DNA of 59,265 bases from Candidatus Saccharibacteria bacterium RIFCSPHIGHO2_12_FULL_47_16b. GTDB taxonomy: Bacteria; Patescibacteriota; Saccharimonadia; Saccharimonadales; UBA10212. Positions 10,036 through 56,674 of this stretch are shown in pieces. The first letter of the stretch is position 1. Each line of letters starts with the position of its first letter. Location of the stretch: NCBI GenBank assembly GCA_001790525.1, contig MGCU01000025.1, positions 14,576 to 73,840 of the forward strand, written 5' to 3'. The position numbers and the translations under genes were made by a program. A model generated the notes under the pieces. The model had not been told where the DNA came from and made no database searches. It was given only the letters and a program-made list of their open reading frames with translations.

Positions 10036-10059
10036 CCATTCCAAGGAGGCTCCTTGGAA
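10036..10059. repeat. Left flanking hairpin of the Y1-transposase unit
   Basis: CCAT-TCCAAGGAG-g-CTCCTTGGA-A (TCCAAGGAG pairs with CTCCTTGGA). Starts at the first nt after the ruvC stop. Confidence 0.85.
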
Positions 10060-10671
10060 TTATGTGTCCGCTAGCTGAGATTTTACTTCATCAATGACAC
10101 GTTTATGATCTTCATAATTGGCAACAAAACTTTGGTAATCATCCCCTTCAAAAAGATCCAGTATCCGCTGAGGATTTAACCAACCAGCACTTCTAGTTTC
10201 TAAATAGTAGGGAAGGCTTGACCACTCATATTGTCTGTAATTAGGAGGGTTTAAATGAAGGTAACGCGATATGTGTTGCAGATACTCATCCCTGGTAATG
10301 AGAGAAGCTTTAAATCGATCTTGAAAGAGAGGGCCTGAACGACTGTATTTTTTATTAAAGAAACCTGTATAAGAAGTACAGAGACCACTAAGAAGTCTCG
10401 TCATAGCTCTTGAATCTTTTTGATACAGCAGAAGATGGAAATGATTTGGCATGAGACAGAATGCTGACAACTCTATTCTCTTATGCAGCCATTCGTATTC
10501 TCTTCCTTTATTATCCTTGACTGGTGTTTTATCAAGATACCTTTTCAATAAACTAAGAAATACTGCATAGTCTCTATCTTGTAAAAAAATCCTTCGCTTA
10601 TTAACACCACGGTTATAGACGTGATAGAAACTATCCTCAAGATAAATTTTCTCGAGATTGCGACTTGGCAT
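10060..10671 (-). CDS. IS200-like / REP-associated tyrosine transposase (Y1, HUH) family protein
   Basis: FYHVYNRGVNKRRIF ... FCLMPNHFHLLLYQ (HUH motif = HFH) ... GPLFQDRFKAS ... ISRYLHLNP (catalytic Tyr region). Confidence 0.8.
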   Translation of the reverse strand: MPSRNLEKIYLEDSFYHVYNRGVNKRRIFLQDRDYAVFLSLLKRYLDKTPVKDNKGREYEWLHKRIELSAFCLMPNHFHLLLYQKDSRAMTRLLSGLCTSYTGFFNKKYSRSGPLFQDRFKASLITRDEYLQHISRYLHLNPPNYRQYEWSSLPYYLETRSAGWLNPQRILDLFEGDDYQSFVANYEDHKRVIDEVKSQLADT

Positions 10672-10696: not shown

Positions 10697-10720
10697 ACCA
10701 TTCCAAGGAGGCTCCTTGGA
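10697..10720. repeat. Right flanking hairpin of the Y1-transposase unit
   Basis: Identical 24-mer CCATTCCAAGGAGGCTCCTTGGAA. Confidence 0.85.
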
Positions 10721-10747
10721 AACAGGATTTGATGGGATAATAGAATA

Positions 10748-12544: not shown

Positions 12545-15500
12545 ATGAGTAGTTTGAAGCTTAAAAAAGTTTTGGTCCTGGGCTCGGGCGGTCTCAAAAT
12601 TGGCCAAGCCGGTGAATTCGATTATTCCGGCTCGCAAGCCATTAAGGCTCTCAAACAAGAAGGCTTGCAGACTGTCTTAGTTAATCCAAATATTGCTACG
12701 GTTCAGACAGATGCCGATATGGCCGATCGAGTTTACTTCCAACCGCTGCGTGCCGATGTGGTTTCTAAAGTCATTGCCCGCGAAAAACCGGATGCCATTG
12801 CCTTAAGCTTCGGCGGCCAGACAGCTCTAAATCTCGGCTTGGAATTGGCGGAATCTGGCGTACTTAGCAAATACCGAATCAAGGTTCTGGGCACCCCAAT
12901 AAAATCAATCAAAGTAACCGAGGACCGCGATCTTTTTAAAACCGAGCTAGCTAAAGTCGCTGTTAAGACGCCGATAAGTCAGGCGGCTTACAACATTAGT
13001 CAAGCTCTTAGGGCAGCCGCTAAACTCGGCTATCCGGTTATGTTGCGGGCCGGTTACAGCTTGGGCGGACTTGGCTCGGGCAAAATATCTTCGCCAGATG
13101 TTTTGAAACAAAAAGTTCGCGAGGCTCTGAAGGCTGTGCCGCAGGTTCTAATTGAAGAATACTTAGACGGCTGGAAGGAAATCGAATACGAAGTCGTCCG
13201 CGACGGCGCCGGTAACTGTATTACCGTCTGCAACATGGAGAATTTTGATCCAATGGGTATCCACACCGGCGAAAGCATCGTCGTGGCGCCGTCACAGACT
13301 CTCACCAATAGCGAATATCACAGCTTGCGGGGAGTCTCACTCAAAACCATTGAGCAGCTGGGCATAATCGGTGAGTGCAACATCCAATTTGCGCTTAACC
13401 CCAAAAACGGCGATTACCGAGTCATCGAAGTTAATGCTAGACTTTCTCGCTCCAGCGCTTTGGCCTCCAAAGCCACTGGCTATCCACTAGCCTTTGTGGC
13501 CATGAAGCTAGCTCTTGGCTATCGACTGGACGAACTGACCAATTCGGTTACCGGCTCAACCCCGGCTTTTTATGAACCGGCCCTCGATTATCTGGCAGTC
13601 AAAATACCTCGCTGGGATTTATCAAAACTCAAAAGCAGTGACCGAGATATCGGTTCGGAAATGAAAAGCGTTGGCGAGGTTATGGCACTTGGCCGCTCTT
13701 TTCCGGAAGCTTTGCAAAAAGCCGTCCGTATGCTCAACATTGGCGCCGATGGCCTAAGTTCTCATAAATTTAATTTCCAAAATCCAAAAGCCGAAATTTC
13801 AAAGCCAACTGATAGCCGCCTGTTTGCAATTTATGAGTGCCTTAAAGCCGGCTTAACGGCTGAGCAAGTTAGCACTAAGGCAAACATCGATAAATGGTTT
13901 GTGACCCAAATGGCTAGGATTGCCGTTCATGAACAAAAACTTAAAGGCTCCAAGCTCAACCAAGCACTACTTAGGCAGGCCAAGCAACTTGGCTTTTCTG
14001 ATAAAACCATAGCCGCTTTTCAAAAATCCGATGAAGAGTCAATCCGGAGCTTGCGTAAAAAATGGGGCATATTACCGGTCGTTAAACAAATCGATACTCT
14101 GGCCGGTGAGTTTGATGCCCAGACTAATTATTTATATATGACCTATCACGGTAGCGAACATGATATTGAGCCGATGGCCAGCAAGGCTGTAATCACGCTC
14201 GGCTCGGGACCTTATTCGATTGGCTCGTCAGTCGAGTTTGACTGGTGCGCTGTCAATACCGTCAAAACTTTGCAAACCTACAATTTGCCGACCATCATTA
14301 TAAATTCCAATCCGGAAACTGTTTCGACCGATTATGACAACTCCGATCGGCTCTATTTTGAACAGCTAACTTTGGAACGCGTTCGCGACATTGCCGACTT
14401 TGAAAATCACAGCGGTATTATCATTTCGGTCGGCGGCCAAATTGCTAACAACCTGGCTTTGCCGCTCCATCAAGCCGGCTATAAAATTCTTGGCACCTCA
14501 CCACAGTCGGTTGATCGAGCAGAAAATCGCCAAAAGTTTTCCCAAATGCTAGGCCGATTAAGACTTGATCAACCCGAGTGGACGGAAGTTAGTAGCTTAA
14601 GTAAAGCCAAGACGTTCTCCAAGCGGGTTGGATACCCCATTTTGGTACGCCCGTCGTATGTTCTTTCCGGCGGTGCCATGAATGTAGTTCGAACAGAAAG
14701 GGAGTTGAAGGGTTATTTGCATCGTGCAGCTCAACTTTCGCCCGACCATCCGGTGGTTATTTCCAAATTCATCGAGAATGCCAAAGAGTTCGAGATTGAC
14801 GGCGTGGCGGCCAATGGTCAAATTCTCATCTATGCTATTTCCGAGCATATCGAAAACGCTGGCGTTCATTCCGGCGATGCCACTGTGGCCTATCCTGCGC
14901 AAAAACTTTACTTAGAAACCATCCGCCGAGCCAGGCAGATTACCCAAAAGATCGCCGCCGAGCTCAAGATTACCGGCCCATTTAATATTCAGTTTGTGGC
15001 TAAGGATAATGCGATAAAGGTTATCGAGTGTAATGTCCGGGCTTCGCGCTCCTTCCCGTTTGTCTCCAAAGTTGCCAACCATAACTTAATTCAAATTGCC
15101 ACCGAGGCTATGCTGGGAGTCGAAAAGCCGCAAGCCTATCAGACAATGGATCTGGATTACGTAGGTGTCAAAAGCCCGCAGTTTTCCTACAATCGGCTGA
15201 AAGGCGCCGATCCGGTGGCTGGGGTGGAGATGGCCTCAACCGGCGAAGTGGCCTGTCTGGGGGATGACCTGCTGGAAGCCTTTTGGGCGTCGTGGCTGGC
15301 TGCCGATCAAACAGTGCAGGGAAAAAGCTTGTTTCTTAGCATCACCGATGCTTTTAAATCGAAACTACTCGACGAAATAAAGCAACTTTATTCTCAAGGC
15401 TGGCATTTTTATACGACGGCCGGTACGCACGCTTTTTTGACGAGAGAAGGAATTAAGTCCAAACTTTTATATAAAATTGCCGAAAACAAAGAACCGGGCC

Positions 15501-20036: not shown

Positions 20037-20155
20037 TTAAAAATAGGGCTTTTAGCCCAAATCCCGACTACTGATTCTAATCTGTAACCTAAAATATGTC
20101 AATTTGCCATTTTGCTAGTGCTTGCATTTTACTTAAAATGCTATATTTTAGACAT

Positions 20156-20590: not shown

Positions 20591-20845
20591 TTAGCGTTCT
20601 TCGCGAGGGCGGGCTTGGGCAACGCTGATAGAGCGTCCACCTAAGTCCTTGCCATTCATGGCAGCCTCGGCGGCTTTGCCTTCCTCGTCGTTTTCGTACT
20701 CGACGAAGCCAAAGCCCTTGGACCGGCCGCTATCGCGGTCGCGAATGACGACGGCTGAAGCTACAGTGCCATGAGCGGCAAAGGCTTCTTTTAGCTCGTC
20801 ATCGGTGGTGGAAAATGGTAATCCACCTACAAATAGTTTGTACAT
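20591..20845 (-). CDS. RRM-type RNA-binding protein
   Basis: RNP2 KLFVGGL and RNP1 KGFGFVEY. 84 aa single RRM, like cyanobacterial Rbp proteins. Confidence 0.9.
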   Translation of the reverse strand: MYKLFVGGLPFSTTDDELKEAFAAHGTVASAVVIRDRDSGRSKGFGFVEYENDEEGKAAEAAMNGKDLGGRSISVAQARPREER

Positions 20846-21770: not shown

Positions 21771-22733
21771 ATGAGAGTGAATATTCCTTGGGGGAAGTAT
21801 ATTTTAGCAGTTTCTGGAGGCGTGGATTCGATGGCCTTATTGCACCTGTTGGTGCAAAAAAACATAGTCACCAGTCAGCAGTCACCAGTCACCAGTCAAA
21901 AAAGGAGACTAGGTACTAAAGACTATAGACTAGCGACTGGCGACTCGACGAGCCTACGGCTCGTCGTGGCGCATTTTAACCATGGAATCAGGGCTGATTC
22001 GGATAAAGATGAAATATTGGTCAGAGATATTGCCAAAGAATATGACCTGCCTTTTGAGGTTGGTTATGGACATTTAGGCTCCAACGCTAGTGAAGATACG
22101 GCCCGCCGGGCTCGTTATCAGTTCCTGGAAGCTGTTCGGCAAAAATATAAGGCCAAGGCCATAATTACGGCCCACCATCAGGATGATCTGATTGAAACGG
22201 CTCTACTTAACATCATCCGCGGCACTAAGCGCAAAGGTTTAAGCGCCATCGCTAGTAACGTTGGTATCCTTCGACCGCTGTTGGACACACCAAAGAAGGA
22301 AATTCTTAAATATGCTCAAAAACACCAGCTTCAATGGCGCGAAGATCCCAGCAACCTCGATACAAAAATCCTGCGTAACTACTTGAGACTTAAAATTATT
22401 CCAAAAATGGACTTACAGCAGCGGCAAAAAATACTGAAAGATATCGATAATGTCGCAAAAATTAATATTGCTGTGGATAGAGAAATTGCGATACTATCTC
22501 AATCAGTAGTTAAAAATGGTAAGATTGAACGATCCAAATTTGCTCTTTTGCCAACAGAGGTAACTCAGGAGTTAGTTGTTTATTGGCTAAGACAACATGA
22601 CATTGCTCAAATTGATAGTCATAGCGTAAGCCGGCTAGCGGTTTTTATTAAGACCGGTAAGCCAGGCACAAATGCATCTGTAAAAGGTACTAGCAAAATC
22701 AAGCTGGAAAAGGATTACGCCCGCTTTGCTTAA
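21771..22733 (+). CDS. tilS: tRNA(Ile)-lysidine synthase TilS
   Basis: PP-loop SGGVDSMALLHLL, then ...VVAHFNHGIRADSD..., ARRARYQFL, ITAHHQDDLIETALLN. Confidence 0.88.
   Translation: MRVNIPWGKYILAVSGGVDSMALLHLLVQKNIVTSQQSPVTSQKRRLGTKDYRLATGDSTSLRLVVAHFNHGIRADSDKDEILVRDIAKEYDLPFEVGYGHLGSNASEDTARRARYQFLEAVRQKYKAKAIITAHHQDDLIETALLNIIRGTKRKGLSAIASNVGILRPLLDTPKKEILKYAQKHQLQWREDPSNLDTKILRNYLRLKIIPKMDLQQRQKILKDIDNVAKINIAVDREIAILSQSVVKNGKIERSKFALLPTEVTQELVVYWLRQHDIAQIDSHSVSRLAVFIKTGKPGTNASVKGTSKIKLEKDYARFA
21864..21947 (+). repeat. In-frame heptanucleotide-periodic array inside tilS (12 units, 84 nt)
   Basis: atagtca|ccagtca|gcagtca|ccagtca|ccagtca|aaaaagg|agactag|gtactaa|agactat|agactag|cgactgg|cgactcg. 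Followed by the 9-bp hairpin CGACGAGCC-tac-GGCTCGTCG (21946-21966). Confidence 0.8.
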
Positions 22734-22760
22734 CAGTTAAATTAGCCTGTTATAATAGCT

Positions 22761-22886
22761 TCAATGCTCAATGCTCAAAGCCCAATGTTAAATGAATGCT
22801 CAAGTAATCAATGCATTAATGAATTGAATCATTGGGTCATTGATAATTCATTGATAATTGATAATTGTGAATTGAAAATTGAAGCG
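22761..22886 (+). repeat. Heptanucleotide-periodic array in the tilS-ftsH spacer (about 18 units)
   Basis: tcaatgc|tcaatgc|tcaaagc|ccaatgt|taaatga|atgctca|agtaatc|aatgcat|taatgaa|ttgaatc|attgggt|cattgat|aattcat|tgataat|tgataat|tgtgaat|tgaaaat|tgaagcg. Confidence 0.7.
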
Positions 22887-29194: not shown

Positions 29195-29419
29195 TTATAA
29201 CACACATCTCGCACCGCTGTCCTGCCAACCGGCGCAGCCGGCCGCACCGACGGCTCTTGGTACATTACGGCGTCAGAGCCTGTGGTACTCCTTCAACGTA
29301 CTTTCCTGTACGCCTCTAGTAAAGTTCCTCGGCTCTTCCTTGTACTGCACCCAAGTGCGAAATGCGTAGCTATATAAGCAATGGCAACAAACTACTCCTT
29401 GACAGTGTAAAATGTAAAT

Positions 29420-36085: not shown

Positions 36086-36433
36086 CTACTCTTGGAAGGG
36101 GTTGTTGCGGGCTTGGTTAAACAGGGCTTGGACTTGCGGACTGTTTTGCTCCAGACTTTGGATTTGCCCGATAGCTTTAGGATCAATTTTTGGCACGGCC
36201 GAAGAAGTTAGGGCTTCATCAACGGCTTCCACTGCCGGCTCGGCACCGGCATAGGAACTAATGCGCCAGACAACAAATAGATAAACAATTGACACAAACA
36301 AAACCGCAGCAAAAACTCCGTGTTTATTGAGAATCGGCCTTAAGCGAGCCGGCACTGCTTTAAGACTCTTAAAGCTGATGTTAATATCCTTTTTCACGAG
36401 GGCTTCCCTCCGTGAAAAAGGATAAATGAACAA
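36086..36433 (-). CDS. Hypothetical single-pass membrane protein, last gene of the pilus operon
   Basis: 115 aa with one TM (VFAAVLFVSIVYLFVVW). Follows pilO on the same strand. Confidence 0.45.
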   Translation of the reverse strand: MFIYPFSRREALVKKDINISFKSLKAVPARLRPILNKHGVFAAVLFVSIVYLFVVWRISSYAGAEPAVEAVDEALTSSAVPKIDPKAIGQIQSLEQNSPQVQALFNQARNNPFQE

Positions 36434-36500
36434 TGATCAATAAACAATAAACTCTTATCAGTTCTTTGCTCTTTGCTCTTTGCTCTTTGATTGTTCATGG
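36431..36500 (-). repeat. Heptanucleotide-periodic array (10 units)
   Basis: caatgat|caataaa|caataaa|ctcttat|cagttct|ttgctct|ttgctct|ttgctct|ttgattg|ttcatgg (plus-strand reading). Confidence 0.75.
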
Positions 36501-37124
36501 CTTGATAAAAATATTTACGGTTATTATAAAGCCGAACTGGCTGCTAGTAGGTGTGACGTTAACAGATGTAATTTGAGCTGTACGCCGGTTGGTCTCGACT
36601 CTCTTTAGAAAATCCAAAAACTTACCATAGGTCACACGTTTATCAGCCGGCGTTTCCGGGTCGGTTTGCGGTGTAATAGTTAAAGAAAGGCTATAAAGGC
36701 CCTTGATACCCTCTACCGGCGTAGCTTGACTGATGGCAGTTGCAGCTTCGACCGCTTTGGCATCGGTGTCCGTTTTTTTGGCGGTCGAGCCAAGACTGCT
36801 GGCCGGAAAGGTTACAGTCTGAAGATTGATGCCGGACTCGTTAGCCATCTGGTAAATGTCCAGCACGGCCTGGGCCTGATTTTTATCGCTCGGCACCACG
36901 GTTTTGGCAACGTCATTAAAATAAGCATACTGCTCAACTTGTTTCTTGGCAGAGGCTAGACTGGTTAGTTGGGCGTTAGCGGTATGACTTTCTAGTTTCA
37001 AATTGACCATTTTTTTACTTTGTTGGCCAATGATATTAAGGCCGCCAAAGACAATCGCCAAAAAGACTATCGAGACAAGAGCCAGTGTGGCAATCAAGAC
37101 AAGGCGCATCCGCGAGCTACTCAT
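36495..37124 (-). CDS. pilO: Type IV pilus assembly protein PilO-like
   Basis: 209 aa with an N-terminal TM, then coiled-coil and ferredoxin-like region. Called by position after pilM-pilN. AGGAGG SD. Confidence 0.6.
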   Translation of the reverse strand: MSSSRMRLVLIATLALVSIVFLAIVFGGLNIIGQQSKKMVNLKLESHTANAQLTSLASAKKQVEQYAYFNDVAKTVVPSDKNQAQAVLDIYQMANESGINLQTVTFPASSLGSTAKKTDTDAKAVEAATAISQATPVEGIKGLYSLSLTITPQTDPETPADKRVTYGKFLDFLKRVETNRRTAQITSVNVTPTSSQFGFIITVNIFIKP

Positions 37125-37147
37125 GGGGCGCCTCCTGTCGTCGGCTT

Positions 37148-37245
37148 AAACTCTAAGCTCGAAGCTCTAAATTCTAAACTTTGATAATTAGTATTTATAA
37201 TTTGGAATTTGTTTAGAAATTCGGATTTAGAAATTAGAATTTGAA
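37148..37245 (-). repeat. Heptanucleotide-periodic array (14 units)
   Basis: aaactct|aagctcg|aagctct|aaattct|aaacttt|gataatt|agtattt|ataattt|ggaattt|gtttaga|aattcgg|atttaga|aattaga|atttgaa. Confidence 0.8.
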
Positions 37246-37261
37246 GTGACGCAGTCATCTT

Positions 37262-37855
37262 CTAGTTTCCTCCTGTGGCGGCGTTAATGAACTGCTTTTT
37301 GGCATCCTTATTAAACAGCGCCTTGAAGGTACCAGTGCAGGCATAAGGACTATCAGTAGTGGTGGTGCAGTTGATGTTAATGATATCGACCTTCTCAAAA
37401 ATGTTATTCTTGGGATCACTTAAATTGACGGCGATTTGGGCTGCCGAGGCATAATCCTTGGCGCCGGCGCTTAAATCGATAGCCCCATCGACTTTGCTCA
37501 AAGTTAGGCTGTTTAGGATAGTGCCACTAGGCATAATTGAGCCAATCTGCTGAATAAGGTCAGAGAAGCGGACCTCTCGGCTAAGCAGCTGGTTGATGAG
37601 CTTGATGTTACCGTTAATCTCCTTAGCTTGAGCCTGCACCTTACTCAAGTTTTGGGTCTCGAGCTGCTTTTTGACCATAGCTATATCGGTCGTCAACTTG
37701 GAATTTTGGTGATTTAAATACAGCCAGCCGCTACCCTCGATGATTAATAACCCAGCCGTGGCTATGATGATTGACATTAACCAGCGAATTAACTTGGCAT
37801 TACCGCGGCCGAGCCGCATGGCTTGGCTATAAGATGGCGGGATGAGATTAATCAT
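37262..37855 (-). CDS. pilN: Type IV pilus assembly protein PilN
   Basis: MINLIPP... N-terminus (the INLLP motif), one TM, and a 4-nt overlap with pilM. Confidence 0.7.
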   Translation of the reverse strand: MINLIPPSYSQAMRLGRGNAKLIRWLMSIIIATAGLLIIEGSGWLYLNHQNSKLTTDIAMVKKQLETQNLSKVQAQAKEINGNIKLINQLLSREVRFSDLIQQIGSIMPSGTILNSLTLSKVDGAIDLSAGAKDYASAAQIAVNLSDPKNNIFEKVDIININCTTTTDSPYACTGTFKALFNKDAKKQFINAATGGN

Positions 37856-38967
37856 TCAAAAATCTCCTTATGGCTCAAGGCTGCTTCGCCGGCCACTGTG
37901 ACATACATCGATTTAGCCAGATCGCTCGGGGATTGAAGATCACCAAAATCAATATGTTTCCAAGGATCTAGCCGCCGGGCCGGCAACTTGAACTCGCCTG
38001 ACAGAAATTCGTTCAGGCCTTTAAGCGTCGCGCCACCGCCAATGGTTATTATCTGGCTAATCTGGCGGTGGCGGGCAGCCGAGCGCTCGTCATAGTAGCG
38101 GATAATCCGCCGCATCTCTTTAACCAAGGCTTCCAAAATCGGTCTGGCTGCCAAGCCAACGCTCGGCATGGCCGAATCAGGCGAGATACCGTGTTGACTT
38201 TTTAGGACGTAGGCTTCGGCCGGGCTGACACCCAGTTGTCTAGCCACCAAAACGGTTACAGTATCCGAACCACCCTGAATGGTCGAATTAACAAACATGG
38301 CCTGATCAAAAACGGCTACGTCAATCGCCACCGATCCAAAGTCTATTAAAATCGAAGCTTCCTCGCGGCCAACATCGGCTAAGCTGAACAGGCGGGCCGA
38401 GGCATTCAAAGTTGGTTCCATGGTAACTGGCTCTAGACCAACCGAATTGAGAAAATTGACATAGCTATCAACCATCTCCTTAGGTGAGGCTACCATCAGT
38501 AGATCAATGCCGTCTTTATCTTGGTGGGAGATATCATAATCAAGGTAGAGTTTATCAACCGGCATGGGGATGTACTGTTCGGCCTCCAGTCGGACAGCTC
38601 CTTCAATCTGTTTTTTATCCATTGGCGGCAGAGCCATCGGCCGACTATAGGTATGGGCGGTCGGAATGGTACAAGCCACCCGGCGGGTAGTAATATTGCC
38701 GACTAATCGTTCGGCGAACAGCTCGTGCATGGCTTTGCCGAGCGCCGCATAATCGACAATTACACCGTTATTGATAGCTTCATTGTGATAGTAATTGCTT
38801 ACCCCATAACCCAATACTTTAGGCAGTTGGCCGTGGTTCCTATCGAGTTGCATGACCTTCATGCTGGAATGACCAATGTCCAAGCCAAACAACGGCTCAT
38901 CGTGGTAGAAGTTAAAGTTGTTGGTGCCCACTTTGTTTATGCTTATCCTTATTCTAGAGTATATCAA
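37852..38967 (-). CDS. pilM: Type IV pilus assembly ATPase-like protein PilM
   Basis: Actin-like fold motifs: LFGLDIGHSSMKVMQL, ...LIDFGSVAIDVAVF..., ...IITIGGGATLKGL. Confidence 0.85.
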   Translation of the reverse strand: MIYSRIRISINKVGTNNFNFYHDEPLFGLDIGHSSMKVMQLDRNHGQLPKVLGYGVSNYYHNEAINNGVIVDYAALGKAMHELFAERLVGNITTRRVACTIPTAHTYSRPMALPPMDKKQIEGAVRLEAEQYIPMPVDKLYLDYDISHQDKDGIDLLMVASPKEMVDSYVNFLNSVGLEPVTMEPTLNASARLFSLADVGREEASILIDFGSVAIDVAVFDQAMFVNSTIQGGSDTVTVLVARQLGVSPAEAYVLKSQHGISPDSAMPSVGLAARPILEALVKEMRRIIRYYDERSAARHRQISQIITIGGGATLKGLNEFLSGEFKLPARRLDPWKHIDFGDLQSPSDLAKSMYVTVAGEAALSHKEIFE

Positions 38968-38968
38968 C

Positions 38969-39031
38969 TCTAGTAATTAGTAACTAGGAACTAGGAAATA
39001 GCTAATTGCTAATTTCTGATTTCTAATTTCT
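38969..39031 (-). repeat. Heptanucleotide-periodic array (9 units)
   Basis: tctagta|attagta|actagga|actagga|aatagct|aattgct|aatttct|gatttct|aatttct. Confidence 0.8.
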
Positions 39032-39035
39032 TTGG

Positions 39036-40427
39036 TTAGTCGAAGACTCGGCGGTAGCCGTTGAGAACCCACGTTGTGCTGGTGCTGCCGCCAGTTGAGG
39101 TGCCGAAAGTGACTGTGGCATTATTCTTAAGCTCGATTGTTTGTCCTATCAAGGCGCCTAGGCTGCCGCTATTATCGACTTTGACTCTCCCCCAGCGTGA
39201 ATAAAAGAGTGTTTCCGGTCCGGAAAAGGAATTTTTTATATGTATAGTTTCTTTGTTACGAGAGTTATATAGATCAACCCCCGTTACATCAGTGCAATCG
39301 GGAGAGCAAGTAGCAGCGCTCCAATAGGCTATAACCTTAAAGCCAACACCCAGGCTGTTGGCGACCAATTTGCTGTCATTTTCAAAGTCATTATGATCAT
39401 CGTCAAGCATGATAACTGGAGGAGTTGTTACCCCCTCGGCCACAATCAATTGGCCCTGATTCTCCATTTCTAGCTTGGTGTTATCAAGCCAAACATCACC
39501 CTCGACGTAAATCTTACAGTTCTTTTCGACATCGACTTCATCCTCGCCACCGCTAACATAATGGATGCGCAGATTGGCTGGCCAGGTTTTTACTATATTG
39601 TTGGTTTCGCAACCGGCTTCGACGTTAGTCATTTCTGCTGTCACGGCAGCTATTTGGGCAGCTCTATCGTGAGGCGGGAACGGCTCAGGCGTAACGCCCG
39701 AGCTGGCTACCAGCCCGGGGTCACTCATACCGGATCCGTCAGTTTGGTTATTGGCCTCGACCGTTCCATAGATGTGGGCGTTGTCATCAATATCAATTGG
39801 TTGGCCGTTTTCGCCGCTGCCGCATAGGCGTGGGTAGGTGACATCAGACGGTACTGGACAATTCTGATGAGCGACATCCAAGTTAACTGGACTAGTGCTT
39901 AAGCCAATTTGGGAACTGTTTCTCATTTCAATTTCACCGTTAACAAAGACATCACCGCCAGTTATCTTGGCGTTGTTACGCATATATAGCCCGCCTTGAC
40001 CGCTAACCACACTGTAAGTGCCAGAACGAACCGGCCTCAAATTGACGCTTAACTTAACGGTTGAGCCAGGCGTGGAGATAGTAATTGGCGAGTACCCTTT
40101 GCCGGTGGCTGTAATGGTTTTATTATCCTCATCAATTGTAGTAACGGTTAAGCTATAGGTGGATTTGATGGCTCCGTCATTATGGAGCTCGACCTCGCCG
40201 CCGCTGCCAGCCCAGTCTTCATCTAGGTTAATTTGTTCCAGCGCATAATCTATGCCGGCATCGGCTGCCAGTTGGGCATGGGTTTGCAGCTGGTCATGCT
40301 TTACACTGCGGAAACTTGTCAGAGAAAGAGTCATGTAGGCGGCAATAATCAAGATCAAGGCCGGCACGGTAATGGTTAAGGCAATTAAAATCTGACCCTT
40401 ATGGTTAATTTTGAAAGTTGTTTTCAT
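39036..40427 (-). CDS. Large PilX-N-type pilus-associated protein
   Basis: N-terminus KGQILIALTITVPALILIIAAYMTL (PilX_N-like anchor without a G/FxxxE cleavage site). 463 aa with a Gly/Asn/Thr-rich beta-helix-like body. Confidence 0.55.
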   Translation of the reverse strand: MKTTFKINHKGQILIALTITVPALILIIAAYMTLSLTSFRSVKHDQLQTHAQLAADAGIDYALEQINLDEDWAGSGGEVELHNDGAIKSTYSLTVTTIDEDNKTITATGKGYSPITISTPGSTVKLSVNLRPVRSGTYSVVSGQGGLYMRNNAKITGGDVFVNGEIEMRNSSQIGLSTSPVNLDVAHQNCPVPSDVTYPRLCGSGENGQPIDIDDNAHIYGTVEANNQTDGSGMSDPGLVASSGVTPEPFPPHDRAAQIAAVTAEMTNVEAGCETNNIVKTWPANLRIHYVSGGEDEVDVEKNCKIYVEGDVWLDNTKLEMENQGQLIVAEGVTTPPVIMLDDDHNDFENDSKLVANSLGVGFKVIAYWSAATCSPDCTDVTGVDLYNSRNKETIHIKNSFSGPETLFYSRWGRVKVDNSGSLGALIGQTIELKNNATVTFGTSTGGSTSTTWVLNGYRRVFD

Positions 40428-41128
40428 TCGACAAGTGGCTCCGAGAATCTATTTCTTAGAGTAACCCTGATGCTATTGTCCAGGGTTAAGGGACTAGCAA
40501 AAGTAGTGCGCTTCATCGATAGATCGATTTTGATGGAGCGGGCCAGCAGCGGGTCGGAGGTTGAGATGCCGTCTTGGTCATAAAAACTAAAGACCATTGA
40601 ATCAACATATTCAGCCAGGATGCTGTCGGCCGGACACTCCGGCGTGGCTATCTCGCTCGGGCAGGAAGTGACAGCAGTATTGCCGGCAGCATTAGGATTA
40701 GCTAGAGTCCGCTTCAAAAGCAGACTACCCGACTTATAATAGACGACCTCATTAATGTAAGGAGTGCCGGTCAAAGGATCGATAATGTATTCGCGGTTAG
40801 CATCTTTGGCCGGTTCGGCGATGACAATCACAAAGTCATCATTGCTAGTGTTCCAGCCGCCCGGCGGCGCATTAGGATCATTGATGGAGTTACTTTGTCT
40901 AACCCCATCGCCGAGGCGCAAGGCCTCAACAGTGTTACGTAGTAAATTTTGGGAATTGACTGTCATATCAATAGCGGCATTGTTTCTGGTGATGGTAAAG
41001 AAGTAGTTAGTCATAGCTGCCAGAAAGGCGATAAATAAAATAGCCGTGACAGTTGTTGCTATGGTCAGTTCCGGTACTGTGTACCCAGCTTGTTTTTGAC
41101 TAGCTAGTTTTTTACGGTTTGCCGACAC
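40424..41128 (-). CDS. Minor (pseudo)pilin with prepilin-type N-terminal domain
   Basis: ...QKQAGYTVPELTIATTVTAILFIAFLAAM has the class III signal G/YTxxE. Confidence 0.7.
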   Translation of the reverse strand: MSANRKKLASQKQAGYTVPELTIATTVTAILFIAFLAAMTNYFFTITRNNAAIDMTVNSQNLLRNTVEALRLGDGVRQSNSINDPNAPPGGWNTSNDDFVIVIAEPAKDANREYIIDPLTGTPYINEVVYYKSGSLLLKRTLANPNAAGNTAVTSCPSEIATPECPADSILAEYVDSMVFSFYDQDGISTSDPLLARSIKIDLSMKRTTFASPLTLDNSIRVTLRNRFSEPLVE

Positions 41129-41600
41129 CTAGTTCTCCTATATAAGTTGTGTAAGCATAGGTTCTGGTTGTGCCTTGATCGTTATAACTTAGGCTAATTT
41201 CAATCTTTTTGAGTCCGCTGCTTGGACTAGAGATTTCCAAATTACCAGTGCGGGGGGCATTCAGATTAGCTGGCAGCTCTGCAGAAATATCAGTTGTGCC
41301 ATCTGCTAGGGTGTTAAAACCGACGTTGCGCAGGGCTTCGACCTTGGCCTCAACATAAGAATTGGCCAATACCAGAGCCCTCACCCTCGGATTTAAGTGC
41401 AAGTAATTACTAATTATGGTACTCATGCTGGTGAGTAAGAGGCCGCCAACGACAATCGCGACTAACAACTCAACAATTGTATAACCCCCAGACACACGGG
41501 GCGCGGTGTCCTGCTGCCCGGCAGAGCCGGTCACTCTGACACCGCTCTTGGCAAATTGCTGTGTCAGCCGCGTGCGAAGCTCACTCAATGTATTACCCAT
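41112..41600 (-). CDS. Minor (pseudo)pilin with an unusually long leader peptide
   Basis: ...PRVSGGYTIVELLVAIVVGGLLL. The cleavage-site Gly is about 38 residues from the only available ATG. Confidence 0.65.
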   Translation of the reverse strand: MGNTLSELRTRLTQQFAKSGVRVTGSAGQQDTAPRVSGGYTIVELLVAIVVGGLLLTSMSTIISNYLHLNPRVRALVLANSYVEAKVEALRNVGFNTLADGTTDISAELPANLNAPRTGNLEISSPSSGLKKIEISLSYNDQGTTRTYAYTTYIGELGVGKP

Positions 41601-41710
41601 ACACCTCGCTCGCTTCTCCTAGCTTCCTTGCACTTTGGACAAGCCCGTGCATCTGGCCTGTATAGTATTACGCTCATGCTTAAGCCTTATTATATCTGGC
41701 TGATAGTGAT

Positions 41711-41744
41711 CAAAAAAGCTCCCGGTTTTGGCCGGGAGCTTTTC
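41711..41744 (-). terminator. Rho-independent terminator after pilA
   Basis: Minus strand: AGCTCCCGG-ccaaaa-CCGGGAGCT followed by TTTTTT, about 20 nt after the pilA stop. Confidence 0.75.
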
Positions 41745-41763
41745 AGCATTCTTTAAGCTAAGT

Positions 41764-42222
41764 TTAAAGCGCTGAGTTTTTGACGAATGTACCGCCAGCT
41801 TCCAGCGTTGCTGTCAGCGTGTAACCGGTACAGTCACCACCGGCACCGTTGTCACAGTTAGCCGGAGTAGCTTCGTATGAGTACACATTGGCTGCTGGCG
41901 AGCTGGCCATGTAGTCGTCATCGGCGTAAGTGCCCTTTGGATCTTTCTGTAACTCAACATCAAGACCCTTCATATTGGCAGTTACCCAATCGCTATCGTT
42001 AAGATTGCCTGGTGTTGGATACTTAGCATTGTCTGCTTGATATTCCTCAAGCTTTTGATAGAGCCCGCCAAGATCGGTTTTACGCTCCGTGTCCCGAGCT
42101 TTCTGCTGGATACCGCTATAGGTGACAATCACTAGCGCTGCTAGTATGCCTATAACCACAATTACGATAAGCAGTTCGACGATTGTAAAACCGCTGGCTC
42201 GTTTTTTATTAAATGAGATCAT
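41764..42222 (-). CDS. pilA: Type IV major pilin
   Basis: MISFNKKRASGFTIVELLIVIVVIGILAALVIVTY is the canonical G/FTxxE prepilin N-terminus. It has its own promoter and terminator. Confidence 0.9.
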   Translation of the reverse strand: MISFNKKRASGFTIVELLIVIVVIGILAALVIVTYSGIQQKARDTERKTDLGGLYQKLEEYQADNAKYPTPGNLNDSDWVTANMKGLDVELQKDPKGTYADDDYMASSPAANVYSYEATPANCDNGAGGDCTGYTLTATLEAGGTFVKNSAL

Positions 42223-42323
42223 TATCCCACCCTTCTTTTATCCGCAATCTGCCTGAGGCAGACGGCGGATTGTCTTATTTGTTAATTAATGATGTGCTAG
42301 AACTTAGCTTGTTCCTAGGTTTG

Positions 42324-42351
42324 ATTATAAGCATAAGCGTACTGATGTCAA
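42324..42351 (-). promoter_or_regulatory. Consensus sigma-70 promoter for pilA
   Basis: Minus strand: TTGACA-N16-TATAAT. It is followed by an about 95-nt leader containing ATCCGC-..-TCTGCC-tca-GGCAGA-..-GCGGAT (42240-42270). Confidence 0.6.
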
Positions 42352-42368
42352 CAATCTATCCACACCGC

Positions 42369-43583
42369 TCAGCCGCCGATGTTTTTACTAAGACTGGATA
42401 TCGGTCCCATAACCGAGGCTGCAATCAAGCCAACTACACCACCCAGCAGAACAATCATTATAGGTTCGATAATCGAAGCCAGTCCGTCAATCACAGCATC
42501 AACCTCTTCTTCGTAAAAATCAGCGACCTTGACTAATATTTCATCAATTTTGCCGGTCTCTTCGCCAACCGCTACCATCTGGCCTACGATTGGCGGAAAG
42601 TAAGCACTGGCCGAAATTTGCTTGCCTAAAGACTGGCCATTTTTAACCGCTTGAGCAACCTTATCAAGCTCAACTTGAATAACTTTATTGCCAACGGCTT
42701 TTCCGGTGACTTCCAAAGCATCAAGTACTGTTACGCCCGAACCCATCAAAGAGGCAAAGGTCCTAGCAAAGCGAGCCACGACGATTTTTAGCAGTACTTT
42801 GCCAAGGATCGGTACACGCAGCAGCAGATGATGCCACCAAAACTTGCCTTTGTCAGTGTGAATGTAGCGTCTAAATAGCCAAATCGCCAAGCCCAGGCCA
42901 AGCAGTATAAAAATGATGTTGTGCTGCATAAAATTACTGGCCGATAACATCGCTCTGGTGTAAACGGGTAGCTGGGCGCCCTCGCCGCCAATACTTTCAA
43001 TAATTTTGCCAATTTTGGGAATTAAAAAGATCATGATGCCAAAAAAGGCCAAAACCGTGATGCACAGAATAACCACCGGGTAGGCCATGGCCGAGTGGAT
43101 TTTATGACGGATGGAAGCATCTTTTTCAACTTGGAGGGACAAGCGCTTAAGGATGTCATCTAAAATGCCGCCGGACTCGCCGGCCCTAACCATGTTGACG
43201 TAAACATCACTAAAAACTTGGGGAAACTTGGCCATGCCTTCAGCCAGCGGCAAACCGCTTTCCACGTCGCGAGTAATCGAAGTAATAACCTGCTTAAAGT
43301 ATTTATTTTCGGTTTGGTCAGTTAGTGTGGTCAGCCCGCGCGGCAGGGGCACACCGGCGCTTATCATAGTTGAAAGCTCACGGGTAAAAACTACCAAATC
43401 CTTAAGCTTAACCTTTTTACCAAAACTGAAACCTCTTTTCGAGGCTTTAGCTTCTTGGATATTAAGTAACTTCAAGCCTTGAGTACGCAATACGTTAATC
43501 GCCGCCTGACGGTTAGCAGCGGCAATTGTGCCATTGGTTTGATGACCTTGCGGGTTTAGCGCAATGTAGGAAAAATCAGCCAA
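42369..43583 (-). CDS. pilC: Type IV pilus platform protein PilC (GspF family)
   Basis: 404 aa with two GspF repeats (...FTRELSTMISAGVPL..., ...FARTFASLMGSGVTVLDAL...). TTG start with AAGGAG 8 nt upstream. Confidence 0.88.
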   Translation of the reverse strand: MADFSYIALNPQGHQTNGTIAAANRQAAINVLRTQGLKLLNIQEAKASKRGFSFGKKVKLKDLVVFTRELSTMISAGVPLPRGLTTLTDQTENKYFKQVITSITRDVESGLPLAEGMAKFPQVFSDVYVNMVRAGESGGILDDILKRLSLQVEKDASIRHKIHSAMAYPVVILCITVLAFFGIMIFLIPKIGKIIESIGGEGAQLPVYTRAMLSASNFMQHNIIFILLGLGLAIWLFRRYIHTDKGKFWWHHLLLRVPILGKVLLKIVVARFARTFASLMGSGVTVLDALEVTGKAVGNKVIQVELDKVAQAVKNGQSLGKQISASAYFPPIVGQMVAVGEETGKIDEILVKVADFYEEEVDAVIDGLASIIEPIMIVLLGGVVGLIAASVMGPISSLSKNIGG

Positions 43584-43600
43584 AGACAGCTCCTTTCGTC

Positions 43601-43698
43601 GCTGTAGTTGCTAGTCGCCAGTCGCTAGTTACTAGTAATTCTGACGGTACTTTCCACACTGATGACTGATGACTAGAGACTAGAGACTGATGTTGAGT
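43601..43698 (-). repeat. Heptanucleotide-periodic array (14 units)
   Basis: gctgtag|ttgctag|tcgccag|tcgctag|ttactag|taattct|gacggta|ctttcca|cactgat|gactgat|gactaga|gactaga|gactgat|gttgagt. Confidence 0.75.
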
Positions 43699-43712
43699 GG
43701 AACGAAACATCT

Positions 43713-45533
43713 TCATCGCTCGATGGTTACGCGCATGACTTCTTCCAGCGTAGTCAGGCCGCGCAGAGACTTAATTAAGCCGTCGGTTTGCATAGTTACC
43801 ATGCCTTCTTTAATTGCCTGGTCCTGAATATCGTCGGCGCTATAACCACCGATAACCAATTTTTGTAAGTCACTAGATATTGATAAGACTTCGTAAATAC
43901 CTAGACGACCGCGCAGACTGGCGCTGCCGCTACTGGCTTTAATACGCCACAACCGCTCAATCGTCGTCTCGGTGGTGGCAGCCTTATCATCCGTTTTGCT
44001 TTTATCACTCGTTCCAGCGCCTTGTAGACTAAGTGATTTCATGGCTTGCAGCTCCAGCTGGTTAATCCGCGCCATATCTTGCTGGTTTTTAATGCCAAAG
44101 CTATCGCGGATGCGGGCTTGAGTATTCATATCTGGCACGTAGCTTTCAATGCTGTCTGGTACCAGCTTGCGGACCAGGCGTTGGCCAACCACGGCTCGGA
44201 CGGTGCTGGCAATCAAGAAGGGCTCAATCCCCATATCAAGTAAACGCGGCAGGCAAGTGGCGGCGTTGTTGGTGTGGAGGGTGCTAAAAACCAAGTGACC
44301 AGTCAAGGCCGCCTGGACCGCCAGGTTGGCAGTTTCGCCATCGCGGATCTCGCCAACCATAATGATGTTGGGGTCTTGTCGCAGTAGCGCCCTAAGGCCG
44401 TTAGCGAAAGTCATGCCGGCTATCGGATTGACTTGAACCTGATTGACGCCGGGAATTTTGTATTCAACAGGATCTTCAACCGTGCTGATGTTGACCGACG
44501 GCTGGTTCAAACGCGACAAGATGCTAAACAGACTAGTGCTTTTACCAGAACCGGTCGGGCCGGTAAATAAAATCATGCCATGCGGCCGGGTTAAGGCATG
44601 CTCCAGCCTGTCTAGCGTGCTGCCCCAAAAGCCCAAATCCTCAAGGGTTGCCGGTTTAGACGATTCGTCAAGGATACGCATGACGACTTTTTCGCCCTCG
44701 ACGATCGGCAGAGTACTAACGCGCAGGGCATACTGGCCGCTGCCAACATTAATTTTAAAGCGGCCATCTTGCGGCGCACGATGTTCATCAATTTTTAAAT
44801 TAGACAAAATCTTAATCCGGCTAACTAGCGCCAGCACGACTTTTTTAGGCAGCCGGTTAGTTTCCCGCAACTGGCCGTCAATTCGATAGCGAACGCTAAC
44901 ATGATCTTCGCGTGGCTCGATGTGAACATCAGAAGCATTTTGTTTAATGGCATCTTCAATAATCAAATTCACGGTCTGGGCAACTGGACTGTCCTCGGCC
45001 ACATCTTCTTCGGTGACTTCCTCTTCGGCCTCGGCTACTCCCGGCACAGCCGAGCTCTGACTGGCAATCACCTCGGTCAGCTCGCTGGATAGGTTTGTGC
45101 GGTATTGGTCCAGCGCCGCTAAGATATTGGAACGAGTAGCTATATAAACTTTGATGTTGGTGCCCAGTTGTTTTTGCAAGAAGTTAATGGCCTGCACATC
45201 GTCGGGGTCTTCCATGGCCAGCAGTTTGGTGCCGTCTTCGGTTACATCAAACAAAACGGCGTTATATTGACGGGCAATATGTTCGGGTATCAGCCGCAGC
45301 ACTTCTTTACGAATATTTTTAGGAATAACTTCTACAAATGGCACCTCAACCCGCGCCGCATAAGCTTGGACAAAGTCTTTTTCAGAAATTAAATTGCTGG
45401 TCAGCACCAAGTCTTGCAGCGGCCGCTTGTCGGTTTTTTGCTGGTCAAGTAAGCCTTTTATTTGGTCTTCTTTGATTTTGCGGTTGGCTTTAAGTAATTC
45501 AACCACCATCGCGTCGTTAATACGCATAAGCAT
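43713..45533 (-). CDS. pilB: Type IV pilus assembly ATPase PilB (GspE family)
   Basis: N-terminal MshEN/GSPII_E_N-like domain, Walker A TGPTGSGKSTS, Asp box, Walker B IIMVGEIRD, His box. Confidence 0.9.
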   Translation of the reverse strand: MLMRINDAMVVELLKANRKIKEDQIKGLLDQQKTDKRPLQDLVLTSNLISEKDFVQAYAARVEVPFVEVIPKNIRKEVLRLIPEHIARQYNAVLFDVTEDGTKLLAMEDPDDVQAINFLQKQLGTNIKVYIATRSNILAALDQYRTNLSSELTEVIASQSSAVPGVAEAEEEVTEEDVAEDSPVAQTVNLIIEDAIKQNASDVHIEPREDHVSVRYRIDGQLRETNRLPKKVVLALVSRIKILSNLKIDEHRAPQDGRFKINVGSGQYALRVSTLPIVEGEKVVMRILDESSKPATLEDLGFWGSTLDRLEHALTRPHGMILFTGPTGSGKSTSLFSILSRLNQPSVNISTVEDPVEYKIPGVNQVQVNPIAGMTFANGLRALLRQDPNIIMVGEIRDGETANLAVQAALTGHLVFSTLHTNNAATCLPRLLDMGIEPFLIASTVRAVVGQRLVRKLVPDSIESYVPDMNTQARIRDSFGIKNQQDMARINQLELQAMKSLSLQGAGTSDKSKTDDKAATTETTIERLWRIKASSGSASLRGRLGIYEVLSISSDLQKLVIGGYSADDIQDQAIKEGMVTMQTDGLIKSLRGLTTLEEVMRVTIER

Positions 45534-45536
45534 AAG

Positions 45537-45561
45537 TATAATCTGTCAGAGCCAGATTATA
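45537..45561. promoter_or_regulatory. Palindrome TATAATCTG-N7-CAGATTATA in the pilB/recA divergent region
   Basis: 9-bp perfect arms. Each arm contains a TATAAT hexamer reading outward-to-inward on its own strand. It lies 4 nt from the pilB ATG. Confidence 0.4.
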
Positions 45562-45651
45562 CTAGTCCCTAGTCGCTAGTCTCTAGTCACTAGAAAAAAC
45601 TGACAACTAAAGACTGATGACTAGTAATGACTGATGACTAGTGACTAATAC
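45561..45651 (+). repeat. Heptanucleotide-periodic array (13 units) upstream of recA
   Basis: actagtc|cctagtc|gctagtc|tctagtc|actagaa|aaaactg|acaacta|aagactg|atgacta|gtaatga|ctgatga|ctagtga|ctaatac. Confidence 0.8.
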
Positions 45652-45739: not shown

Positions 45740-46768
45740 ATGGCAGATAAACCTAAACTTAAAGATGATTCAGCTAAAGCCAAGAGTGGCAAAAACCAGG
45801 CTCTCAAACTGGCGCTTGATCAAATCGAAAAACAGTTTGGTTCCGGCTCGATTATGCGCCTTGGTGACAGCACTAAAACTACTGTCGAAACCATTCCCAC
45901 CGGTAGCTTGAGTTTGGACATAGCTCTCGGCGGCGGTTTGCCTAAAGGCCGAATTATCGAGATTTTTGGTCCGGAGGCCTCCGGCAAAACCACCGTTTGT
46001 TTACATGCCGTGGCCGAAGTCCAAAAAGCCGGCGGCACGGCCGCCTACGTTGACGCCGAGCACGCCCTTGATCCGGCCTATGCCAAAAAGATTGGCGTGG
46101 ACATTGATAATCTTCTACTTTCTCAACCCGATAGCGGCGAACAGGCCTTGGAAGTTGTCGAGACATTAGTCCGGTCTAACGCCGTGGATATCATCGTGGT
46201 TGATTCGGTGGCGGCGCTTGTGCCGCAGGCCGAAATCGAGGGTGACATGGGCGATGCCCAAATGGGTCTGCAAGCTAGGTTGATGAGTCAGGCCATGCGC
46301 AAACTGACCGGCGTTATTAGTCGCACCAAGTGCACAGTCATGTTCGTCAACCAACTGCGCATGAAGATTGGCATTATGTTCGGCAATCCGGAGACGACCA
46401 CCGGCGGCCAGGCCCTGAAGTTTTACTCGTCGGTGCGTATGGACATCCGGCGCATCTCGCAAATAAAAACTGCCGAAGAAGTGATTGGCAGTCGTGTCCG
46501 AGTTAAGGTTGTTAAGAACAAAGTGGCGCCGCCGTTTCGCGAAGCCGAGTTCGACATCATGTACAACGAAGGTATTTCTAAAGCTGGTGATGTCCTGGAT
46601 CTGGCCGCCACTCACGGTGTGGTCGAAAGAAGCGGCGCCTGGTACGAATACAAGGGCGAAAAAATCGCTCAAGGCCGCGAAGCCGCCAAAAAATTCCTGC
46701 GCGCCAACCCCAAAGTCTTTGACAAAATCATCACCGAGACCCGCGCCGCCGCCGAAAAAACCGAGTAG
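45740..46768 (+). CDS. recA: Recombinase RecA
   Basis: The ATG after AAGGAG is preferred (MADKPKLK...). ...[15 protein letters not shown]..., Walker [10 protein letters not shown], ...[17 protein letters not shown]... Confidence 0.95.
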
Positions 46769-51547: not shown

Positions 51548-51726
51548 ACCAAAAATCGTTTGACCAGCCAACTTTATCGATTTATTATTATGTTAGGATT
51601 TTCTGTTTGGTTGGATAATCCTTTTAGATTTAATCAATTTTGATCGATTTTAGCTCATAGGACTTAACAGACTAAAGAAGTGATAGTGACTGTCTAAAGT
51701 CCTTAGAGCTCGGAACAGGAGGAAGC

Positions 51727-56523: not shown

Positions 56524-56578
56524 AGCGCTCCACGGACTCAAGTCCGTTACTTCAGCTTGGCGGATTTCGGAGCGCGGA

Positions 56579-56647
56579 ACCCCGCACCGAAAGCCAGAAT
56601 TAGCACTGATACCTGAACTAAAGTTCGAGGCTTTCTGGTGCGTGGGT
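56579..56647 (-). ncRNA. Long-hairpin element H3 (same family as H2)
   Basis: Minus strand: TT-ACCC-A-CGCACC-A-GAAAGCC [33 nt] GGCTTTC-GGTGCG-GGGT-TCCGC. Lies 28 nt downstream of the stop of 56675..57511 and is followed by a second hairpin GCGCTCC...GGAGCGC. Confidence 0.55.
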
Positions 56648-56674
56648 AAGCTCACCACTCGCTAAGCTGTAAGA

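Follow-up and report, generated by a model that had tools for sequence, protein, structure and literature searches.

Why should the short gaps between the cistrons of a type IV pilus operon be filled with repeats of seven nucleotides? The question is raised by a 59,265-nt stretch (the window) of contig MGCU01000025.1 of Candidatus Saccharibacteria bacterium RIFCSPHIGHO2_12_FULL_47_16b. An earlier note, made from the letters alone, had described degenerate 7-nt repeat arrays in strict register at every non-overlapping junction of this operon. The arrays in the pilus spacers hold up against shuffled controls. They also possess a second, inverted arm, and they occur outside the pilus operon, even in frame within essential genes. 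The best reading of these sequences is that the arrays belong to an unusual repeat class, and are probably not a device specific to the pilus.

Seven arrays with a period of seven and inverted arms

Lag-k identity was slid across the whole window at a strict setting (W=28, at least 78% identity) and at a looser one (W=21, at least 70% identity). The strict scan returned six segments at k=7 and zero at any other k within 4-15, and at the looser setting k=7 gave 12 segments (629 nt), with 0-4 for the other periods, period 14 excepted. Tandem Repeats Finder recovered the same arrays, with 3.6-5 copies and 84-100% match. We also compared the lag-7 identity of individual spacers with that of 500 dinucleotide shuffles, a test with its floor at p<=0.002. 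Five pilus spacers reached this floor: 36434-36494 (array A, z=7.0), 37125-37261 (array B, z=5.8), 38968-39035 (array C, z=8.2), 43584-43712 (array D, z=4.8) and 45534-45640 (array E, z=5.8). About 30 other spacers of the window had z near zero, and those with a weaker lag-7 signal (56524-56674, 20037-20095, 51548-51726, 2539-2967 and 29195-29419) proved on inspection not to be arrays. The arrays are base-for-base identical in independent assemblies (ENA, NCBI, JGI and Logan samples), which excludes an assembly artefact. The window contains the following arrays:

45560-45650, array E, divergent spacer between recA and pilB
43604-43692, array D, spacer from pilB to pilC
38969-39033, array C, spacer from minor pilin to pilM
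37146-37243, array B, spacer from pilN to pilO
36425-36492, array A, spacer from pilO to a 103-aa gene
22759-22885, array F, spacer from tilS to ftsH (lag-7 z=4.1)
21864-21948, plus strand, array G, in frame within the tilS coding sequence

All seven consist of a left heptad run and a right run with the reverse-complement core, a dyad organisation that was absent from the earlier note. Array E opens with four to five NCTAGTC units (45560-45594), passes through an A-rich loop and closes with GACTGAT/GACTAGT units (45606-45650); its inverted arms of 22-23 nt are 77-78% complementary. Array D has CTAGTCG/CCAGTCG units at 43604-43640 and GACTGAT/GACTAGA units at 43656-43692, while array G reads (AGTCACC)x5, AAAAAA and (GACTNNN)x5-6. 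These three form one AGTC/GACT family with an AGTCNNN/NNNGACT design. Arrays D and G share a 17-nt identical stretch, ACTAGCGACTGGCGACT, including the "variable" positions, and D and E are 95% identical over 21 nt. The remaining arrays are built from other units. Array F is composed of (TCAATGC)x3-4, a loop and an inverted CATTGATAAT/AATTGAA run. On the plus strand, array B displays an AAACTCT-type run, an ATAATTT-type middle and an inverted TTTAGAA-type run; its inverted arms are 72% complementary over 25 nt and 92% over 13 nt. In gene sense, array C reads (AAATTAG)x4 and then (CTANTTN)x4-5, and array A reads (AAGAGCA)x4 and then GTTTATT/GATCATT units. The window therefore holds at least four unrelated heptad motifs among its units (NCTAGTC/AGTCNNN, TTCTAAN, AAATTAG, AAGAGCA and TCAATGC). 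We considered CTAG avoidance and rejected it: the tetranucleotide is not avoided genome-wide (observed/expected 1.06), and its roughly tenfold higher density in the arrays is due to the unit sequence itself.

The register had been put at a strict 60-100 nt. Arrays A and C do keep it nearly continuously over about 65-70 nt; otherwise it is held within runs of 21-39 nt, and arrays D and E are two separate arms around a non-periodic loop.

An ungapped inverted-repeat score exceeded that of shuffled sequence with z above 4 for arrays D (4.4), E (4.5), F (4.2) and G (5.0), and with z of about 2.5 for B and C (2.6 for C); array A was not significant as DNA. Significant inverted arms were also found in 13 of 20 arrays from relatives (z at least 2.9). 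Since a heptad run, an A/T-rich loop and an inverted run follow one another, either strand can be predicted to fold into an imperfect hairpin. RNA folding gave z scores of -0.9 to -5.8, and neither strand was consistently favoured (array E had -3.4 on one strand and -3.6 on the other, F -2.9 and -3.2, G -5.0 and -5.8); the predicted sense-strand hairpins ranged from -0.9 to -5.0. Sense-strand bias, as a sign of selection at the RNA level, was inconsistent across the arrays. Array A alone shows it, with a predicted sense RNA hairpin of -19.2 kcal/mol that uses G-U pairs (z=-3.6; antisense z=-0.9).

Between the upstream stop codon and the start of a spacer array lie 0-25 nt, and a few nucleotides separate the far end of the array from the Shine-Dalgarno sequence that follows. 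Arrays C and E are exceptional, as they end just upstream of -10-like elements; in pilB sense, array E ends directly upstream of TATAAT at 45561-45556. A terminator function was rejected because the arrays have no U-tracts, and no terminator-like site coincides with an array. A scan of the window against Rfam 15 at the gathering threshold returned six tRNAs only and no known RNA family at the arrays.

Arrays in other genes and other lineages

The arrays had been presented as a property of the pilus operon, a view that their distribution contradicts. Besides the in-frame array of tilS and the array between tilS and ftsH, two more lie on 9 kb of contig upstream of the window, one in frame in lepA and one upstream of dnaK; the 6 kb of contig downstream of the window contain no array. 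The lepA array (L184, 1415-1515, about 8 kb before the window start) is a heptad quasi-palindrome that adds an in-frame insert of about 30 aa to the G domain, between GITIK and IDTPGH. In a hand alignment its arms are about 85% identical to those of array B (22/26 positions in the left arm), with different loops. A LepA insert of 34-60 aa instead of 14 aa was found in 89 of 120 Saccharibacteria hits, Nanosynbacter lyticus among them, and in three lineages the DNA behind it shows heptad periodicity. In Nanosynbacter, a lag-7 value of 0.21 means that the widespread 47-aa insert carries no such signal, and it was not counted as an array. The grpE coding sequence of a related contig (L191, 9158-9199) contains (AGAGTCA)x4 in frame. 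We also observed short in-frame runs with no obvious inverted arm in comEC (TTATTGT x3.6, 7142-7166) and carB (TCCAAAA x3, 13776-13797).

In TilS, array G encodes about 29 extra residues, which fall between SGGVDS, the PP-loop motif, and the AHFNHG motif. According to the alignment of homologues tilS starts at 21771 (320 aa); gene callers on the strain contigs place the start at 21831 (300 aa), and the SGGVDS PP-loop is lost. In 80 tilS loci (247 kb) from a metagenome scan, period-7 segments amounted to 1070 nt within this short site and 28 nt elsewhere. In-frame inserts of 4-38 aa occur there in about 20 of 75 lineages, and the other 49 have a 16-aa ancestral form. The arm pairs differ by lineage: AGTCGTC/GACTATC, AAAAGCC/AGCTTTC, GATTAGA/AATCACA, ACAGGTG/AACCTCT, GAATGAA/CATTCCT and CTAGTAGC/GCTACCAG, with cores such as AGTC/GACT, AAAAGC/GCTTT, GAATG/CATTC and AGGTT/AACCT. 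Insert-bearing lineages are scattered in an approximate tree, some being sister to insert-free ones, which indicates recurrent gain or loss. Judged by these loci, the tilS site is a hotspot of heptad palindromes in Saccharibacteria, with a different motif per lineage. This variety at one site, together with motifs that look locally derived (AAAAGCC), points to growth in situ. In its ancestral form the site often reads as a mini-palindrome, GGCTAAAAAGCC (Ala-Lys-Lys-Pro), whose A-run stays near the centre of the array. Repeat addition to both 3' ends at a double-strand break would yield inverted arms; we disfavour this origin, as the ancestral Lys-Lys A-run lies between the arms and not outside them.

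About 1 kb upstream of tilS, the window encodes a single-domain RRM_1 protein of 84 aa (20591-20845, minus strand, E=5e-22), a possible binder of single-stranded RNA. RRM proteins are typical of cyanobacteria, which have heptamer repeats.

Meanwhile, pilus loci at large are poor in such arrays. Across 1.49 Mb from 80 further pilus loci of Saccharibacteria, 362 nt lay in period-7 segments, or 0.24 nt/kb against 10.6 nt/kb in the window. This roughly 40-fold sparser signal is background, similar to that of periods 4, 5, 8 and 10. In the scan of genome contigs, the nearest species representative has a PilB 75% identical to that of the window, and a PilM protein search provided three closer relatives. 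In L094 (PilM 74%), pilM, pilN, pilO and the 103-aa gene overlap, junction C measures 27 nt, and no period-7 segment occurs anywhere in its 14 kb. L091 (PilM 81%, GW2011_GWA2_46_10) displays arrays at junctions C and B, and L095 (PilM 70%) at junctions D and A; the motifs at B, D and A are wholly different between species. In the junction alignment, array C follows the stop codon and precedes a conserved leader (TGnTATACT / AAGGA). The presence of an array between stop codon and leader in the window and L091, and its absence from L094, suggest a lineage-specific insertion. By this comparison the arrays are lineage-specific insertions limited to a small clade, and those in the pilus gaps were inserted recently. 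The earlier note held that heptad-free spacers in relatives would mean chance sequence. Such a relative does exist, in the form of the overlapping genes of L094, and what it reveals is insertion along one lineage rather than chance.

A change in unit number was observed directly. Along 20,630 nt, the strain contig L081 and the window have 0 mismatches, and their sole difference is a 7-nt gap in L081, where the perfect x4 run of array A has lost one TTGCTCT unit (36463-36469). This one-unit change directly supports replication slippage at array A, a role the earlier note had offered as speculation. Unit-number variants of arrays D, E, F and G were looked for in 20-odd strain contigs and not found, because the sampled population is nearly clonal; arrays B and C did not vary among the available contigs either.

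The pilus operon itself was delimited from open reading frames, Pfam matches (T2SSE, T2SSF, N_methyl, PilM_2 and weak matches to PilN and PilO) and gene calls on strain contigs:

36086-45533, minus strand, type IV pilus operon
45533-43713, minus strand, pilB (T2SSE)
43583-42369, minus strand, pilC (T2SSF)
42222-41764, minus strand, pilin (N_methyl)
41600-39036, minus strand, three overlapping minor pilins
38967-37852, minus strand, pilM (PilM_2)
37855-37262, minus strand, pilN (PilN, weak match)
37124-36495, minus strand, pilO (PilO, weak match)
36397-36086, minus strand, 103-aa gene, the last of the operon
45740-46768, recA, diverging from pilB

Two of the seven non-overlapping junctions are free of heptads, so the claim that every one carries an array was too wide. 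The pilC to pilin junction (42223-42368, lag-7 z=2.0 against dinucleotide shuffles) contains a perfect consensus TTGACA-16-TATAAT promoter at 42351-42324 and a leader hairpin. In the pilin to minor pilin junction (41601-41763, lag-7 z=1.0), the pilin gene is followed by a GC-rich, terminator-like hairpin and a U-tract (41700-41735). With its own promoter and a strong hairpin and U-tract behind it, the major pilin gene looks like a separately boosted and attenuated unit within the operon. In addition, TATACTT-ATG is conserved directly at the pilB start in three species (window 45534-45545, L091 3690-3700, L095 3508-3518), which suggests that a -10 box is positioned to give a leaderless pilB mRNA.

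Likeness to known repeat systems

The only analogue named in the earlier note was the STRR family of heterocystous cyanobacteria (STRR1 CCCCAGT, STRR2 TTGGTCA, STRR3 CAACAGT). This comparison is apt as a class, but it missed closer systems, namely the hmw hairpin, TAACTGA repeats and Rickettsia palindromic elements (RPEs). The window units differ from the STRR motifs, and the host is a member of Candidatus Saccharibacteria.

Heptanucleotide repeats are the commonest class of long simple sequence repeats in bacteria (Mrazek 2007, summarised in PMC4679880), and the window arrays, whose unit falls within 5-11 nt and whose length exceeds chance, belong to this class. In Beggiatoaceae, Cyanobacteria and Bacteroidetes, TAACTGA repeats lie before start codons; in repeats of the TAACTGA and STRR type, close strains differ by 7-nt indels and the spacers of relatives are repeat-free, and BOGUAY has 169 direct TAACTGA sets against 1 indirect set (PMC4679880). 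The present arrays resemble them in their intergenic position, often just before a start codon or Shine-Dalgarno sequence, in mixing heptamers within a spacer, in their sporadic phylogenetic spread, in having shorter, repeat-free counterparts in relatives and, at array A, in a one-unit length step between close strains. However, they contain no TAACTGA runs (MacGregor 2015), GACTGAT units being one variant among many and present in both orientations. STRR and TAACTGA repeats are also described as direct repeats of defined motifs without an inverted second arm, whereas the present arrays have that arm, belong to the phylum Saccharibacteria and recur in frame at hotspots in tilS and lepA.

In hmw1A/hmw2A of H. 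influenzae, (5'-ATCTTTC)n forms one arm of a 5'-UTR hairpin that is cleaved by RNase III; repeat number tunes expression inversely, and the hairpin is required for the repeat number to change (PMC12721329). The likeness consists of a 7-nt unit upstream of surface-structure genes, repeats that are here predicted to form an arm of an imperfect hairpin, and natural variation in unit number. Array A comes closest, its perfect x4 run being predicted to pair with a G/U-rich arm in the sense RNA. In contrast, at hmw a single motif is repeated perfectly in one long array of at least 11 units, and the right arm is non-repeat and G-rich, while the Saccharibacteria arrays are short degenerate runs with both arms heptad-periodic, and involve many motifs and loci, coding regions included.

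RPEs insert in frame in housekeeping genes (PMC10969869). Our arrays likewise are palindromes that lie between genes and are translated within unrelated housekeeping genes (tilS array G, lepA, grpE of L191), with dispersed copies in a reduced genome. RPEs, however, measure about 150 bp and have a family consensus and a conserved encoded peptide, whereas the arrays measure 60-100 nt, are made of 7-nt units with lineage-specific motifs and recur at tilS with different sequences, which suggests growth in situ rather than RPE-like insertion. Nor do they display the consensus, terminal repeats or target-site duplications of intragenic MITEs, and no such duplications flank D, G or the lepA array.

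The window also encodes a Y1 transposase (IS200-like, 10060-10671, minus strand, Pfam Y1_Tnp E=1.3e-6) between ruvC and ruvA. The gene is flanked on both sides, at 10039-10059 and 10701-10721, by a perfect 21-nt palindrome, TTCCAAGGAGGCTCCTTGGAA, found nowhere else in the window even with 3 mismatches allowed. This resembles a REP/RAYT or IS200/IS605-like arrangement. The arrays share with REP/BIME-RAYT systems the position of short extragenic palindromes at gene junctions, and the window does encode a Y1 transposase between palindromes. They differ from them in having no conserved GTAG/CGTC-type head, in being internally periodic and in being also intragenic. Their dispersed palindromes do not match those that flank the Y1 gene, and since that palindrome is unrelated to any heptad, we rejected a link between the arrays and the transposase.

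Collectively, the present elements combine traits of known systems and add to them a second arm that is inverted and heptad-periodic, as well as sites that recur as hotspots. The earlier note knew of nothing comparable in genomes of the candidate-phyla-radiation kind, and our full-text literature search agrees with it: no paper was found that joins Saccharibacteria, tandem repeats and intergenic regions.

Weighing the explanations

We favour, with a probability of about 50%, an explanation in which the arrays are repeat elements driven by slippage and hairpins at permissive sites, their effects on pilus expression being secondary. The element would be a quasi-palindrome made of a short run of 7-nt units, an A/T-rich loop and a run of inverted units, produced by a repeat-expansion process restricted to part of Saccharibacteria. 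Replication slippage gains and loses 7-nt units, as the indel at array A shows, and intrastrand hairpin-templated copying may keep the arms symmetric and let related units spread between loci. The stretches shared by D with G and E, and the arms shared by B and lepA, suggest that units move or homogenise between loci. The elements would settle where they are tolerated, that is, in gaps between stop codon and Shine-Dalgarno sequence, at sites upstream of promoters, and in frame in surface loops of the essential proteins TilS and LepA. In the pilus operon, where their present positions are intercistronic or promoter-upstream, they may have pried apart cistrons that abut or overlap in L094. Secondary effects on pilus expression could arise from mRNA hairpins, lost translational coupling and unit-number variation, and at least array C would later have come under constraint. 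Motif variety, in-frame copies in essential genes, absence from L094, growth from local seeds and the one-unit polymorphism all fit such a mutational or selfish expansion better than they fit a pilus device.

Several observations weigh against this explanation. It leaves the reason for a 7-nt unit unexplained, and at the tilS site L153 repeats a unit of 8 nt (AACTCGCC x4) opposite an inverted left arm. It also relies on inference for the hairpin-templated copying and for the spread of units between loci. About 75 kb of the source genome were covered (the window and flanking parts of the contig). Arrays occupy 5 of the 7 pilus junctions and 1 of 33 other window spacers (Fisher p=1.8e-4, post hoc), and they recur at pilus junctions in three species (the window, L091 and L095). 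In addition, over 56 nt array C of the window and that of L091 share 93% identity, against 64-77% for the flanking genes (binomial p of about 1e-4 to 2e-3), and a purely neutral or selfish element should be less conserved. This is the strongest hint that array C may have been under constraint since its insertion. Given how well array C is conserved, that arrays recur in three species and that array A looks like hmw, co-option of some arrays for regulation is a realistic possibility.

Those same observations could be taken further, with the arrays serving primarily as functional intercistronic or 5'-UTR RNA hairpins that set the expression of pilus cistrons and vary it by unit number, as in hmw. 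The 7-nt units adjoin surface-appendage genes, pilus junctions are enriched for arrays in three species, and array C is more conserved than its coding flanks. Array A is predicted to pair with a U/G-rich right arm in sense RNA only (z=-3.6 vs -0.9), natural one-unit variation has been seen in this array alone, and the hmw precedent has been described (PMC12721329). However, slippage should be rare in most arrays, as these are short, degenerate and made of 2-5 imperfect units, and no variation in B-G is seen among the available, nearly clonal contigs. Folding has no consistent sense-strand advantage, unit changes in the in-frame copies of tilS and lepA would shift the reading frame of essential genes, and L094 manages without any spacer. 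We consider it somewhat unlikely that hairpin regulation is what the arrays are for.

It is also conceivable, though unlikely in our judgement, that a dedicated hairpin-coupled mechanism builds symmetric 7-nt palindromes repeatedly at the TilS alpha1-beta2 loop, the LepA G-domain loop and the pilus junctions. The arrays would then be an undescribed class of self-propagating or enzyme-made element, with arrays C and A co-opted for pilus control by these epibionts.

Could the arrays instead be small non-autonomous mobile palindromes, similar to MITEs or RPEs and possibly moved in trans by the Y1 (IS200-like) transposase? The dispersed paralogues D, E and G with their near-identical stretches of 17-21 nt, the arms common to array B and lepA (about 85% identical by hand alignment), the insertions in frame in housekeeping genes as described for RPEs (PMC10969869) and the Y1_Tnp gene between identical palindromes would all be in line with it. 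Yet there are no terminal inverted repeats apart from the array itself and no target-site duplications, and the paralogues agree in their arms and differ in their loops. Moreover, the motifs at the tilS site differ by lineage and some (AAAAGCC) look locally derived, and the palindrome on either side of the Y1 gene has no relation to the heptads and is confined to two places. Mobility of this kind appears distinctly doubtful.

HutP, which reads (UAGNNNN)x3 on RNA, and TRAP are precedents for yet another function, in which the heptads would be a binding lattice for an oligomeric protein, either on RNA or on DNA as an operator or UP-element-like site at pilB and pilM. The units do have a conserved core with variable positions (AGTC+NNN, NCTAGTC), arrays C and E lie directly upstream of -10-like elements, array C is conserved, and an RRM protein gene lies near tilS. 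On the other hand, at least four unrelated unit sequences in one genome, and others in each lineage, fit no single binding specificity; arrays B, D and A are not at promoters, and arrays in coding regions are hard to account for. We regard such a lattice as very improbable.

Finally, chance low complexity or an assembly artefact, which the short and AT-rich spacers might have invited, can be dismissed: the signal is confined to lags 7 and 14, the pilus spacers reach z=4.8-8.2 when compared with dinucleotide shuffles, independent assemblies of several samples and sources agree base for base, and another species has homologous arrays.

Type IV pili are central to host attachment and DNA uptake in Saccharibacteria, so elements that split pilus cistrons and change by one unit in nature could tune a key symbiosis function. 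For annotation, the inserts inflate conserved proteins in candidate-phyla-radiation genomes, and tilS is cut at the array by gene callers. The main interest of the arrays lies in their dyad organisation and in the tilS and lepA hotspots rather than in the pilus association. Arm-by-arm covariation across lineages and the recurrent occupation of tilS and lepA by in-frame heptad palindromes whose sequences are unrelated provide a natural data set on the birth and symmetry of heptad repeats, which bears on the recent claim from H. influenzae that a hairpin and transcription, and not simple polymerase slippage, drive heptamer changes.

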